This document shows, one piece after another, positions 4,891 to 64,000 of a DNA stretch of 64,000 nt (position 1 is its first letter; the number at the start of each line of letters is the position of its first letter). The notes below the pieces were generated by a model. That model was not told the DNA's origin. It saw only the letters and a program-made list of their open reading frames with translations, and made no database searches. The stretch lies in contig OZ024752.1 in the NCBI GenBank assembly GCA_964016885.1, positions 5,022,001-5,086,000 of the forward strand. The letters run 5' to 3'. Origin of the DNA: Eledone cirrhosa (taxonomy: Eukaryota). A program made the position numbers and the translations under genes.

Positions 4891-5231
4891 GGAGGCACAT
4901 GGCTTAGTGGTTAGAGCATTGGCCTTGCAATCGAAAGGTTGTGAGTTCAATTCTCAGACAGGGTAATGTGTTGTTTCCTTGAGCAAGCCACTTTATTTCA
5001 CATTGCTCCAGTTTACTCAGCTGTAGAAATGAGATGATAGGGACTGGGGTCCATATCATTCCACTGTAAACTGGTCGTGGAGGTGCCACGGCAAAAAAGC
5101 ACCCAGCACTCACTGTAAATGAGGTTGGTGTTAGGAAGGGCATCCAGCTGTAGAAATCAAGCCAGAATCAGTTCCCGTCCCACCCTTGCAAGCAGCGAAA
5201 AGCGGACGTAAAATGAAATGATGATGATGAT
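4891..5231 (+). mobile_element. Young CORE-SINE family 1, full length
   Basis: tRNA-like head with A box TGGCTTAGTGG and B box GAGTTCAATTC, CORE-like segment, RTE-like tail ending in (ATG)n. Confidence 0.92.
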
Positions 5232-19264: not shown

Positions 19265-19606
19265 GTGGCACATGGCTTAATGGTTAGAGTATTGGCCTTG
19301 CAATCGAAAGGTTGTGGGTTCAATTCTCAGACCGGGTGATGTGTTGTGTCCTTGAGCAAGACACTTTATTTCACATTGCTCCAGTTTACTCAGCTGTAGA
19401 AATGAGATGATAGGGACTGGGGTCCCTATCATTCCACTGCAAGGTGGTCGTGGAGGTGCCATGGCAAAAAAGCACCCAGCACTCACTGTAAATGGGGTTG
19501 GTGTTAGGAAGGGCATCCAGCTGTAGAAATCAAGCCAGAATCAGTTCCCGTCCCACCCTTGCAAGCAGGGAAAAGCGGACGTAAAATGATGATGATGATG
19601 ATGATG
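19265..19606 (+). mobile_element. CORE-SINE family 1, full length
   Basis: Family consensus with (ATG)n tail. Confidence 0.92.
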
Positions 19607-52910: not shown

Positions 52911-53253
52911 CATCATCATCATCATCATTTCATTTTACGTCCGCTTTTTCCTGCCTTGCAAGGGTGGGACGGGAACTGATGCTGGCTTGATTTCTACAGC
53001 TGGATGCCCTTCCTAACGCCAACCTCATTTACAGTGAGTGCTGGGTGTTTTTTTGCCGTGGCACCTCCACGACCACTTTGCAGTGGAATGATAGGGACCC
53101 CAGTCCCTATCATCTCATTTCTACAGCTGAGTAAACTGGAGCAATGTGAAATAAAGTGTCTTGCTCAAGGAAACAACACATCACCCGGTCTGAGAATTGA
53201 ACTCACAACCTTTCGATTGCAAGGCCAATGCTCTAACCACTAAGCCATGTACC
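52911..53253 (-). mobile_element. CORE-SINE family 1 inserted into the hammerhead-bearing repeat
   Basis: TCAAAT duplicated at both ends; the flanks join to match the uninterrupted 36368-36560 copy. Confidence 0.92.
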
Positions 53254-53359
53254 TCAAATATTAATAATAATATTCTACTCATTTGCAATTATGCAAACAG
53301 CCTCTTTAAACCATGTCAGTAGAATGAGCCCCATCATTCTTGCTCTTGGCATATAAACA

Positions 53360-58092: not shown

Positions 58093-58693
58093 TCCGAAAT
58101 TTATCCAACAAAGGAATATAATAATAGACACAATCCAAGGGGCTGAAAAGCAGAGAGAAATGCCCAAGATGAGAAGGCGGCCAAAAATGAGCAGTTGCTA
58201 GTCTGGGTGGCTGCCTTCAAGTAAGGAATCTACTTAATCTTGTCTTGTTGGCCTGGTCCAGGGGGTCATACATTTATAGTGTATATTACTACTACTACCC
58301 CGTCGTGGACAGATGTTAGCGGTGAGATTAGGTTACATATAAGAAGTTAGTCAGAAGTGTTAAAAAGTACTAAGAAATATATTTAAAAATATATATACTG
58401 GACGGATGTACAATAGGTTTTTTAATGTAGAGTTAGAAATTACAATTAAATATTAGAAATGTAAAATTTATGTTTAGAATTAAAAGATATAATTTAAGAT
58501 GATAAGATTAAAGGTTAGAATAGTAAGATTTAGGTTTTAAATTGGGAGAATTTGCAGAAGGAAGCATTATGACAAAGGTTAAATGTATTATTGATAGTCA
58601 TAATAAAGTCTCAGGGTAGAATATAAAGTTAAGATTTAAAAAGTAAGATTAAGCCCAAATTTAAGATTATATGTGTGTGTGTGTGTATATATA

Positions 58694-58769
<76 letters not shown>

Positions 58770-58771
<2 letters not shown>

Positions 58772-59691
58772 AAATCATACATGGTTGTTTGTTCTGAGTT
58801 GCTGAAGTACAGTTCTTCATCGAATTTAGCCAAGCGTTCAGTGATATCATCTTTGAAATTAAGGATAATATCATTTGAATCTTTAATGCCCCAGCTAAGA
58901 TTTCTTAGTTTAGTCTTTAGTTTCTTCAGAACAGCATGATATAACCTGTTGGGTGGTAGGTTATTCAGTTCCTTGATGTTGTTGTACATTTGCTTAAGTT
59001 TGTCTGATTTAATGAGTTTTTTTATTCAGCCTTTGCTATTCTATCTATCTTGGCTAGTGAAATATCTCATGCCATCAAATATTTGAAGCGAGGAAAAAGC
59101 CCTGGACTGGACAACATATACTCAGAATTCATCAAAGCTGGAGGTGAACCAATTATCAAAGCACTTCAACATCTCTTTAACTGTATTATAAGTACAGGAA
59201 AAAAGCCGAGATATATTCAAGAAAGCATTAATAGTTGTACTCTACAAAAAAGGTAGCAGACTTAATTATGGGAACTATCGTTCTATCAGCTTACTGAGTT
59301 ACCTATGCATATCACCTTCATTCATTTCACAAAAGCTTTTGACAACGTGAAACTACCCAGCTTGTGGCAACTCTTAAACAAGACCTCAGTTAACCAAAAA
59401 TACATCAACCTATTGAAAGAAACTTACACCAACTTAATAGATATATCAAAACAGAATTGGGAACTACACGCTGTATAGACATATAGAAGGGAGTTAAGCA
59501 GTGGGATGTACTATCAGCACTTCTTCTGTATAGTTATAGCTGCACTTATTTACCAAACTGAAGAAGAATGCTCCTCTGGCTATCAAATAGGAGGTAAAAT
59601 CCTATCAAATCTTAGCTATACAGACGATCTGGCCATCATGAGTTACTCTAAAACTTATCTGCAACACTTTCTGAATGTACTGGCCAAACAT
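58770..59691. mobile_element. RTE-like LINE fragment with inverted 5' part (58770-59028 minus; 59030-59691 plus)
   Basis: Plus: EISHAIKYLKRGKSPGLDNIYSEFIK...NYRSISLLS...FTKAFDNV...GVKQWDVLS...LSYTDDL; minus: the EN-RT linker ...ITERLAKFDEELY. Confidence 0.82.
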
Positions 59692-59711
59692 TATATATAT
59701 GTATATATAAA

Positions 59712-59754
<43 letters not shown>

Positions 59755-59913
59755 AAAGGATTGTAAATAAAATTAGTAAATCAGACAAAGTTGGAATTCC
59801 TTTTATTAATATAATCTTCTATACACAATCATACACACCCGTGTATATTTACTTATATATCTATATATCTATATTCCTATTGTGTATATGCCAACATATC
59901 TGGAAAGCAACAA

Positions 59914-61222
59914 ATGAAACCAACAGAATCAGAAAGAATTCTAAAGGAGATATCATCAAAATTATCTACACTTATCATGATGACTGACACACAATCCTCT
60001 ATTTTAAAGGAAATAGAAAAACAATCTACAGATGGAAAACTTATAACTGAACATATAAACTCTGAAATTAAGAATTTAGCTGAAATTATACCAACAGTTA
60101 TCAAAGATACAAGAGAAAGCCTACCACAACCCCCCTGGATGTCAGAACTAAACGAAAGAAATTTGGAAAACGAAACACATCGAATAAGAAAAGAAATGTG
60201 GAAGACATGGAAAAAAAATTATTAACATAAGAAAACAAAACTTCTGGAAAGCATACAAATGTGAAAAATATGTCGAAACACATTCGAAATGGCATTCTCT
60301 AACAGCACCCATACTCCCTCGTAAATACCTAATTAAAGAAATTGCAGGAGAGCCAGAAGAAGAAACAAAACTCCTATGGGAACTTACATTGACAGAATTC
60401 AGGACTGACATCTCCATTACTCAATGTAAACAATCCCACTACAAAGCCAAATATGAAGCTATCGATGACCAAATTGAAGTCGAAATTTCAAAGCTAACGA
60501 CTGGTATTATAGCTGAAAAACTATGAGAACTATGGATCAGAGATATCTCAAAAGAAGAAAGCAAATCAAGAACGTTCTGGGAGCAGAAACAATTATTTCT
60601 CGACGAATATGCTGCAAATTACGGTAAAGACTCTGGAACTCTGAGAAAAAGCATTAAAAGTGGACAATCTCGCCAACACAAACACTCACCTTACCTTGAA
60701 TCAAAGAAGAACTACGTTAGGAACTCTTCGCTTTTTCTACAAAAACACCCTAATGCACACAACATGAATAAAAAGCACAAACACGATAGATATTCCTTTG
60801 ACCAGACCATGAGAAGTAGAAAATCCAGGAAATCATTCTCAAGATCTCAACAGAGACTACCCTCAAGGAACGGGGGAAAAAACCGTAGAATAACTAGATC
60901 ACTCTCAAGATCTCAACAGAGATTACCCACAAGAAACTGGGCAAAAAATCAATCTAAACCTGAAAGCAAACCTAGGTCATTTTCCCAGATTGTTAAAAAT
61001 AATGCTAACAAGAAATGCAAAAATAATATACATAATACCAAAAATAGGACAAAAATCATTACAAAACTAAGTATAATATCACGACCAAAAGTTCATCAAG
61101 CAAACACCAACAGGAATATAAATCCTGAACAAAGAAAAGTCCATTTTTTAATGTCAGGACAACAAAAACCGGAAAAAGAAAAGCTCCAGGAGGAAACATA
61201 CCCAAAACAATTGAACACGTAG
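59914..61222 (+). pseudogene. PLE ORF1 (~435 codons): helical/coiled-coil-like N-half, basic R/S/K/N-rich C-half
   Basis: Continuous frame once one extra A in the A8 run (60211-60218) and one TGA (~60524) are repaired. Confidence 0.72.
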
Positions 61223-63320
61223 ATCCTAAAATAATTAATTTATCCAAAAGAGATCTTGACAATGATGAAATGCAAATTCTGTCAAAAGGACTGAAATTCA
61301 CACCGACTCTAACAGTCAACCACCAAGAATTCTGACGTAAATTACGACTTGTAGAATTCTTTGCTGATAAAAGTAATGAGAGTGATGAATCACTAGTAAA
61401 GAATAAATCAAATTTCACTCCGCCAAAAGGAAGAAATATCTATCTCGACCAATACATTGATATCCTGTCTAAATTTCCTCTTAGACGTAATACTAATGTT
61501 AGGCCAAACATTAACAAATTGGAAATGTCTGCACTTAAACGTATACAAAATGATAAAACAATAATAATTAAACAAGCAGATAAAGGGGGTGTAATTGTTA
61601 TAATGGATGCTGAATACTACAAAGATTTGGTTGGGGAACAACTGAAAGACATAACATTCTACCATGAAATACTGTCAAATATAGACCACAACATCATGAA
61701 GAAGATCAACAACCTGGCTTCAAAATACTACAACTCACTTACTGATAATGAAAGAGACTACATCACCAATTTTGAGCCAAAACCCACCAACTTTTATGGC
61801 TTACCAAAAATTCATAACTCAAAAGAAATCCAACTGGCAGTAAAAGAACAAAAAAGTGAGTACATTAAATTACTACACCCAAAAGAATTAAAACTTAGAC
61901 CTATTATAGCTGGTCCAACATGCCCTACCCACCATCTAAGCAATTTTGTTGACATTATTTTGAAACCACTATGTATTCACATACCCAGTTTCATCCGGGA
62001 TGATATCGACTTCCTGTCCCATCTTCCCAAAACCACGGAAACGAATTCACTTCTACTTAGTTTTGATGTGGTAAGCCTTTACACCAATATTACACATGAT
62101 TTAGAAATAAAGGCGGTTAAATACTGGGTGGAAAAACATAGAGAAGTGATTCCCACCAGATTCACAGTGTCATTTATATTAGACGCAGTCAGACTTATTC
62201 TGGAAAACAACACATTCTTCTTCAATGGAAAGAATTACATCCAAATTAGAGGCACAGCGATGGGAACGAAGTTTGCTCCCATTTACGTGAACTCTGTAAT
62301 AGGATACTTAGAACAACAACTCTACGAAGAAATAGAGGAAAAATATAGTACTGAATTTAGAAAGTACATTGAAAAGTCTTGGAAGAGATACCTTGATGAC
62401 TGTTTCATCATCTGGATAGAATCTCTAGATACTCTGGATGAGTTCAATATCCTCCTGAATAACCTACACCCATCTCTCCAATTTACAAAAGAGATGAGTA
62501 GTACCAAATTACCATTCCTAGATATAATGGTAATCAAAAACGACACCACCATTACCGCGGATATATACTATAAACACACAGACGCCCATCAATATCTGAA
62601 TTTTAAGTCGTGCCATCCACCTCATACAAAACGCAACATCCCATACTGCCTAACCAGAAGAATTTGTACCATTGTAGAAGATACGAATACCAGGAACAAA
62701 CGCCTAACAGAACTGAGAGAATTTTTGCTCAAACAAAAATACCCATCTCTACTTATAGAAAATGGCATACAGCTGGCTATAAAAATACCTATACAAAAAC
62801 TTAGGACAACCCAAGGAAGAAGAAACCAAGAACTGGTCATACCATTTATAATGACACACAAACCATGTCACCAGAATATCTTCAATACGCCAAAGCAAAC
62901 CTACCGATCACTGCTCAAAGTAATGAATTAAAAGGTTTAATCACAGAGCGAGCTTTGATTCTTAGTAAAAGACAGCCGAAAAATTTGAAGCAATTACTAA
63001 CAAAGGCAAAGTTTGACCTTAACAACAAAGACCAGTCATTCACTGTATCTAAATGCAATGATAGTCGATGTGGCACATGTCAGTTCATACATACTGGTTA
63101 ATATATGAACACAAAAACTTGAAAAATATTCACAAATGCAAATATGAACTGCAAAAGCAGAAATCTAATTTACTGCATTAAATGCCCGAATTGTGAAGAA
63201 CTATATGTCAGTCAAACTGAAAATGCACTATCGGCACATGTACGGGTGCACTGACAGCAAATCAGAGACCCAAATGTCCGTCAGATACCCCTGAGTAACC
63301 ATCTAGCAACCCAAGCTAAA
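61144..63320 (+). pseudogene. PLE reverse transcriptase - GIY-YIG endonuclease ORF, inactivated
   Basis: IINLS...KGLKFTPT, IKQADKGG, FYGLPKIH, RPII, SFDVVSLYTNI, GTAMGT, RYLDDCF, LPFLD; then CNDSRCGTC and NLIYCIKC...YVSQT. Stop at 61333, frameshift near 62890, further stops in EN, C-terminus truncated. Confidence 0.93.
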
Positions 63321-63409
63321 TGAACAATAATAATGCTTAGGGGTATTACTTCTACTATGACTATGCCTACAACCATGTCAACCACTAACAACAACATTAA
63401 TAATAATAA

Positions 63410-63468
63410 AAGTGATGATTACTGAAGATTTTTTATAAAAACCCTAGAAAATGCTATTTTCATCATTT
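63410..63468 (+). ncRNA. Degenerate type I hammerhead motif
   Basis: AAGTGATGATTA-CTGAAGA-TTTTTTATAAAAACCCTA-GAAA-ATGC-TA-TTTTCATCATTT; stem II appears to have lost part of one arm. Confidence 0.45.
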
Positions 63469-63710
63469 CTAAAAATAGCAAAACAATTGATGCTTTGGAT
63501 AGGGTCAAATAGTTGATGTTAGACATGCTCAACCAACCATGACGCCTAAACCAATCAGCTTTAATAATCTAGTGAAACCACACACCAATTGGTCGAAATA
63601 CAGTTTGCCAAACTTAGCATTCTGTAGCCCCTTTTTACTGTATATAAGGCACAGATTTTAGCCATCTCATTACAGTTGAAAATTGCAAACTTGACTGTCA
63701 CCACTGAATA

Positions 63711-63749
63711 TGAACCTGAAGATTGTGAAAGCATGAAAGTACTTGTTCA
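63711..63749 (+). ncRNA. Minimal type I hammerhead in the PLE 3' terminal repeat region
   Basis: TGAAC-CTGAAGA-T TGT GAAA GCA T-GAAA-GTAC-TT-GTTCA; palindromic GTAC stem III. Confidence 0.78.
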
Positions 63750-63877
63750 ATTAACATTTAATATTCTACCATACTATTTCATTATAATATCCTTATCATT
63801 TTAAAGGATTGTAAATAAAACAAGTAAATCAGACAAAGTTGGAATTCCTTTTATTAATATATATATATATATATATA

Positions 63878-64000
63878 CAGGGTGTGGACAATATTTGTTC
63901 GCAAGATTACTGTCTAGGAAAAAATAACACAGTAGTTTTATTTTTTAAGATATATTTATCAAACTTGGGGCAGTTTGTCTTCATGACTTGTTCTTTCGAT
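63878..64000 (-). mobile_element. Second DD37D (maT) transposon copy, running off the window
   Basis: TA|CAGGGTGTGGACAATATTTGTTCGCAAGATTACTG... near-identical to 31537-31657. Confidence 0.9.

Follow-up and report, generated by a model that had tools for sequence, protein, structure and literature searches.

An in-phase U_UUU_UUA heptamer in the ORF1/pol overlap of endonuclease-bearing Penelope-like elements, a probable site of programmed -1 frameshifting

In a family of endonuclease-bearing (EN+) Penelope-like elements (PLEs) from the genome of Eledone cirrhosa, ORF1 and the pol frame for reverse transcriptase (RT) plus GIY-YIG endonuclease overlap at -1, and a slippery heptamer T TTT TTA lies in the overlap in phase with ORF1. 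Judged by comparison of the sequences, overlap and heptamer are a real, conserved feature within EN+ PLEs, which departs from the single-ORF layout described for this group. Probably, the RT is made by programmed -1 ribosomal frameshifting at U_UUU_UUA. Such frameshifting would account for the constant -1 offset, for the phase and the codons of the heptamer, for the tail that stays open and for the absence of an ATG. Most ribosomes would stop at the ORF1 TAG and release large amounts of a helical protein with a basic tail. A minority would slip, with re-pairing of tRNA-Phe and tRNA-Leu, and produce an ORF1-RT-endonuclease fusion of about 1,200 aa.

The element in the window and its copies in the genome

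The window, i.e. the whole analyzed stretch of 64,000 nucleotides (contig OZ024752.1), contains a decayed copy of this high-copy, Neptune-like element at about 59746-63860, between (TA)n tracts. The (TA)n-rich flank of the 5' end (59694..59750) and the (TA)n flank of the 3' end (63857..63878) were read from the sequence and have no strand assigned; all other parts lie on the plus strand. A short direct repeat of the 3' end, a pseudo-LTR remnant, is located at 59746..59812 and matches 63794-63860 by 95.5%. The 3' pseudo-LTR (63331..63860), repeated 5' of ORF1 in the intact copy L034, includes a hammerhead-like core with CTGAAGA at 63716-63722, a short stem and GAAA. This core was found by pattern; the Rfam search gave no hammerhead match and nothing above chance. 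Decayed fragments similar to LINE reverse transcriptases, recognized by eye, adjoin the element upstream (59030-59690 on the plus strand, 58636-58900 on the minus strand). Elsewhere the window carries a dispersed repeat of about 310 nt with 95% identity in both orientations (4892-5201, 19267-19574, 52946-53255), and from 21402 on, units of 9 and 12 nt form a long array.

ORF1 (59896..61222) and pol (61129..63330) are both broken in the window copy; in intact copies they comprise 449 aa and, from stop to stop, 775 codons. Their overlap is 94 nt long (61129..61222). The heptamer was localized at 61144..61150, where the ORF1 frame reads ...CAT TTT TTA ATG... with His-Phe-Leu at the site, and 23 sense codons separate it from the TAG ending at 61222. 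The first-pass annotation had described the heptamer, this reading of ORF1 and an RT frame at -1 whose first ATG follows only after the IINLS motif. All of this was found again, with the RT frame opening at 61129. For ORF1 it had given 59914 as the start; the stop at 61222 holds, but the start lies six codons earlier and 59914 is the second Met. The start codon itself is mutated to ATA (59896-59898) in the window copy. The copy is indeed dead, as had been proposed: indels near 60210 and 62888 change the frame, deletions near 60671 and 61322 keep it, 104 nt are lost near 63307 and several stops are present; over 4087 aligned bases it has 6.2% mismatch to an intact copy. Between heptamer and IINLS neither an indel nor a stop was detected in this copy.

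The identity of pol as RT with GIY-YIG, proposed from the window copy, was substantiated with an intact sister copy. Its pol matched Pfam RVT_1 with E 2.9e-6, short of the curated cut-off, and GIY-YIG with E 3.2e-6, which passes the cut-off. The motifs follow in the order IINLS, GLKF, DKG, RT core with RYLDD, linker finger of the type C-x4-C-x2-C (CNDNRCGTC at codon 650) and GIY-YIG with CCHH-type residues (residues 687-773 of 775). In the endonuclease, a CxxC is placed between the GIY and YIG equivalents, plus two His. An insert of about 20 residues was observed between YGLPK and LRPII (L034:2580-2660, pol codons ~236-260; ~61815-61890 in the window). In the accessible supplement of PMC8557442 the Nematis rows have a shorter insert at this point and the Neptune rows little or none.

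The AlphaFold model of ORF1 is all-helical for residues 11-241 and disordered thereafter, with a mean pLDDT of 59.6 and values below 50 in the tail. This tail is basic (25% K+R, 3% D+E). ORF1 likely oligomerises and binds the element RNA, and the ORF1 protein is presumably abundant relative to the fusion. The term Gag-pol-like, applied to the element at first, fits the expression logic but not the protein itself: no CCHC knuckle by sequence and no convincing Pfam family were found for ORF1, and the medium-confidence model gave no fold match, Gag included, in PDB and BFVD at E <= 0.001, only generic helical matches. The best score in the ESM Atlas was 0.83, which is a lead only. Named relatives are from bivalve molluscs.

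For the copies of the family, the genome (3.0 Gb) was searched with the junction (587 DNA candidates, 40 of them scored) and with ORF1 (1,804 protein candidates, 145 scored, many identical). From the top ORF1 matches 20 stretches with young copies were taken, holding 24 junctions; this choice favours copies with an intact ORF1, but no particular type of junction. ORF1 was intact in 22 of the 24, pol in 21 (one was cut by the stretch end) and both in 20, with a mean pairwise difference of 0.13%. The element family has recently multiplied. All 24 junctions are at -1 with an in-phase T TTT TTA. Because young, near-identical copies all keep the overlap, the two-ORF -1 layout is the replicating element's own. 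In older copies, including that of the window, TTTTTTA is kept in 26 of 30; four carry substitutions and none an indel in the T run. At the 3' ends of the young copies (TA)n was found in ten cases and a partial tandem copy in 11, while three were unscored. Copies also form a tandem array whose period is ~4.19 kb (L024, L027, L028, L029), tandem pairs (L038) and head-to-head inverted pairs (L043, L049, L050).

Conservation of the junction and alternative readings

Two other families of the same genome, B and C, are 28% identical to the window family in ORF1 and 46-48% in pol. In both, ORF1 and pol are intact and at -1, with T6A. Furthermore, 120 outside loci were examined, 75 from metagenome and 45 from genome collections. 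ORF1 homology was detected in six of them, among which L051 is closely related to L058 and L057 has decayed. All six are at -1 with an in-phase T6A (five) or T6G (one), and none has a Met ahead of the IINLS-like motif. The -1 frame of three of them opens at most one codon from the heptamer. The same -1 layout, in-phase heptamer and lack of an early Met were seen in L071 and L123, which are more distant and have no detectable ORF1 homology. In the RT tree (FastTree), from which L057 and L058 (too short or broken) and reference sequences were left out, eight T6 elements group together with support 100, and L123 joins weakly. An ORF1 scan of metagenome contigs, a single-protein scan of genome contigs and a viral-contig scan gave no relatives. 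The question raised at the outset, whether overlap and T6A are conserved, is thereby answered: intact young copies, the two other families and the six outside relatives keep the overlap and an in-phase heptamer, with T6G for T6A in one relative. On the same comparison a private indel in the T run and a fusion of the frames throughout the family were rejected, as the -1 frame and the in-phase heptamer are retained throughout.

When the codons of the ORF1 tail of the window family were shuffled, 0.2% of the trials had an in-phase T6N within the overlap, and values of 0.1-2% were obtained for nine elements shuffled individually. Some heptamer of the type XXXYYYZ arose in 47% of the trials with the window family. 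A single copy is therefore weak evidence, and what counts is that the heptamer is conserved from family to family.

This conservation is also visible at the protein level. The ORF1 profile search gave 568 clusters (50% identity) at E <= 0.001; from the best 150, the 94 of 300-500 aa were kept. Among these matches, which are not independent sequences, Phe-Leu occurs within the last 45 residues in 78 of 94 homologues, compared to three and nine of 94 in two upstream windows and to a mean of 7 and a maximum of 16 after shuffling. The other 16 are without Phe-Leu near the end; three have Phe-Phe and several look truncated. K, E, Q, M or W never precede Phe-Leu (0/78; background 21%). These are residues with codons that cannot end in U or C, and their absence is expected if the codon before Phe-Leu ends in U. 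We read the Phe-Leu pattern as the protein footprint of the phased U_UUU_UUA. At the DNA level, the codons are fixed as TTT TTA or TTT TTG in 11 of 11 T6 junctions. The ORF1 tails are otherwise unalignable, yet open and in phase up to the site.

As the main alternative, the T run could act as polypyrimidine tract at a 3' splice site. In that case a donor in ORF1 would be spliced to the RT frame, and the unspliced RNA would give ORF1. Eight of the 11 T6 junctions read TTTTTTAG, resembling a splice acceptor, and the window family reads TTTTTTAACGTCAG, with the AGs at the same codon phase of pol. The codon after Phe-Leu starts with G in 56 of the 78 ORF1 homologues; however, Y, W, F, P or L follows in 16, where no AG is possible. 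Introns are known to be kept by PLEs (PMC8557442), and the intact copy of the window family has one phase-compatible donor-like site, but its GT is AT in the window copy. With a crude pattern, no compatible donor-like site was found in family B and no donor position common to the three families. Moreover, a splice site does not need the fixed phase to ORF1 that is kept in 78 of 94 homologues. In view of these points, splicing is considered improbable as the origin of the RT.

The fixed phase and codons bear on two other proposals, polymerase slippage on T6, which would add a U in few transcripts and so fuse the frames, and a Phe-Leu that is merely a protein motif. A protein motif would neither fix the codons nor bar K, E, Q, M and W from the preceding position, and slippage does not require a codon phase. 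The lack of a visible RNA stimulator in the window family would suit slippage, as would a few genomic copies in which the T run has gained or lost length or the frames are fused (L181, L183, L208, L211, L200). Fused copies are rare, however, with one 1,183-codon frame in 103 rows, and we give these proposals very little probability. The fused frame belongs to a copy of family C (L200:584-4132), in which ORF1 and pol are joined by an indel just before the heptamer.

Frameshifting at the heptamer, the preferred reading, requires no start codon in pol. If the RT were instead a separate protein, made by re-initiation or internal initiation, the T run would serve something else. A start at the first Met would delete conserved N-terminal motifs of the RT: this Met follows IINLS in the window family and is codon 163 in family B (114 codons past GLKF), codon 70 in family C (also past GLKF) and codon 140 in L127. 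On the other hand, for 63 of 120 pol homologues, known as protein calls only, the called start is a Met upstream of IINLS. Separate initiation also has a parallel in a distant EN+ clade (L068, L072, L073, L076, L077, L079, L083) with an upstream ORF of up to 715 codons. There, the pol ATG either shares bases with the stop of the upstream ORF (ATGA, three loci) or lies shortly ahead of it (-5 to -8, four loci), which suggests that this clade may use termination-reinitiation. For the T6 elements the phased heptamer would be left unexplained, and a separately initiated RT appears highly unlikely.

Structure 3' of the heptamer and position of the ORF1 stop

At the frameshift site of HIV-1 a hairpin is located 3' of the heptamer. 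In contrast, the junction of the window family shows no stable 3' fold (z +0.3 to +0.8) and no H-type pseudoknot with both stems of at least 4 bp, in agreement with the first-pass annotation, which had seen no strong hairpin at this position. No stable 3' structure was found for families B and C either (z -0.8 and +0.7), and a clear one is present in two of the 11 T6 junctions (L052, L055). In the window family the heptamer by itself would likely give a low rate of shifting, with help from the basic nascent tail or from ribosomes that queue behind the nearby stop.

In 23 of 78 homologues the ORF1 stop follows Phe-Leu at a distance of exactly 10 codons; the distance is nine in one and less than nine in none. 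On a tree of 85 ORF1s the 10-codon state is clustered; 13 changes are needed and at least eight are forced by strong branches. Therefore, the 10-codon spacing was kept over deep divergence or reached repeatedly. A contig-end artefact as the source of the spike was rejected: the contigs that carry ten proteins checked for this range from 1.4 kb to 1.1 Mb, and in two clusters independent members terminate at one and the same residue, so that the stops are real. Four DNA junctions with the 10-codon spacing have no strong structure (z +0.7 to -1.8). A strong hairpin (z -4.6) was obtained for L055, the sole T6A junction with the stop one codon on.

Collided ribosomes are about 10 codons apart. A stop held one ribosome length (10 codons) downstream would thus leave the next ribosome waiting on U_UUU_UUA. 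It is conceivable, though rather unlikely, that frameshifting in a large clade of EN+ PLEs is stimulated by the ribosome terminating at the ORF1 stop and not by an RNA structure. The 23 codons of the window family do not fit a spacing of one ribosome. Among the ORF1 homologues P0128-P0274, stop distances of 20-23 and of 30-31 codons, close to multiples of ten, were noticed as loose clusters; this grouping was made post hoc and is partly due to kinship. In general, the 10-codon spacing offers a natural test of the terminating ribosome as a substitute for an RNA stimulator. For SARS-CoV-2 it was reported that the 0-frame stop, by its position, tunes frameshift efficiency (PMC8168617). In both systems the shift may be influenced by a 0-frame stop close by. 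According to the accessible text of PMC8168617, however, the viral stop is five codons on, inside the pseudoknot, and is proposed to allow refolding, whereas 10 codons are the commonest distance among the ORF1 homologues.

Relation to known elements

Canonical EN+ PLEs are described as single-ORF elements (PMC8557442), and PLEs in general as having either a single ORF with endonuclease or two ORFs without it (PMC6431247). The window family differs: in 20 of 24 young junctions both ORFs are intact, and they overlap. As an intact, recently multiplied EN+ family with two ORFs and a retrovirus-type signal, it cuts across this division as drawn in the accessible text of both papers.

The window element fits the Neptune/Nematis type as far as this is defined in the accessible parts of PMC8557442. 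With the Neptune clade described there it shares RT plus C-terminal GIY-YIG, the CX2-5CxxC linker finger (also present in Nematis), DKG and GxKF, as well as pseudo-LTRs, tandem and inverted insertions, (TA)n flanks and, by pattern, a putative hammerhead-like core. By eye, the contexts DKGG, AMG and HP-H-K-NIP are closer to Neptune than to Nematis in the supplement rows of that paper. In contrast to Neptune, the window family has an ORF1 of 400-450 aa that overlaps pol at -1, and pol is without an ATG ahead of IINLS. A killifish Neptune has an upstream ORF of 140 codons, which does not overlap, and the accessible text of PMC12602865 does not mention a frameshift. Naiad elements carry the GIY-YIG at the N-terminus, whereas that of the window family is C-terminal.

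The two-ORF layout with a coiled-coil ORF1 resembles Athena/Terminon and Coprina (PMC6431247, PMC13159263, accessible text). An upstream zinc-knuckle ORF was described for some algal Chlamys elements (PMC8557442). The window element differs from Athena and Coprina by its endonuclease, by its dispersed location at (TA)n instead of telomeres and by the lack of a pseudoknot, and the ORF1s are likened by layout only. A published legend on a frameshift-separated PLE ORF1 with pseudoknot reportedly refers to Athena. In this legend (PMC8557442, Fig. 1) a PLE ORF1 is said to be separable by a frameshift with a pseudoknot, and the accessible text does not name the clade.

U_UUU_UUA was named in the first-pass annotation as the shift site of HIV-1 gag-pol, which is stated in the accessible text of PMC5009743. 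Both systems have the same heptamer in the same phase, with a structural-type gene upstream and the polymerase downstream. The window element differs from HIV-1 in having no Gag homology, protease, integrase or stable 3' hairpin. Full-text searches of the literature retrieved no description of -1 frameshifting for an EN+ PLE, though an older one may exist. Nothing on this subject was contained in the accessible text of PMC3846280, PMC9004415, PMC4700185, PMC6515669, PMC5408684, PMC13159263 and bioRxiv 10.64898/2026.07.22.740005.

If the frameshift reading is true, a control of protein ratio similar to gag/pol would operate in telomerase-related retroelements, and many annotated PLE proteins without a proper start would be explained. 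ORF1 represents a protein family of 568 clusters for which there is no Pfam model. Near-identical intact copies and a junction of 100 nt make frameshifting directly testable.

The junction differs in neighbouring EN+ elements. In a separate clade from one assembly (L097, L100, L102, L104, L105, L106, L109, L110, L113, L118, L120) an upstream ORF at -1 ends at G GGT TTT or G GGT TTC, 0-2 codons before its stop. In single folds, a GAC...GTC hairpin with a varying upper stem then follows in most of them. RNAalifold did not recover this hairpin from the G_GGU_UUU junctions, for which the alignment was ungapped and out of register. In L098 and L112, members of the same clade, the heptamer is absent. 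With joins by G_GGU_UUU plus hairpin, by stop-start and by one long ORF in the neighbourhood of the T6 elements, this group is a good model for changes of recoding strategy. PLE contigs and proteins filed under bacterial genomes and symbionts were also observed (L126-L170; P0014, P0040, P0059, P0119), which are likely host contamination.
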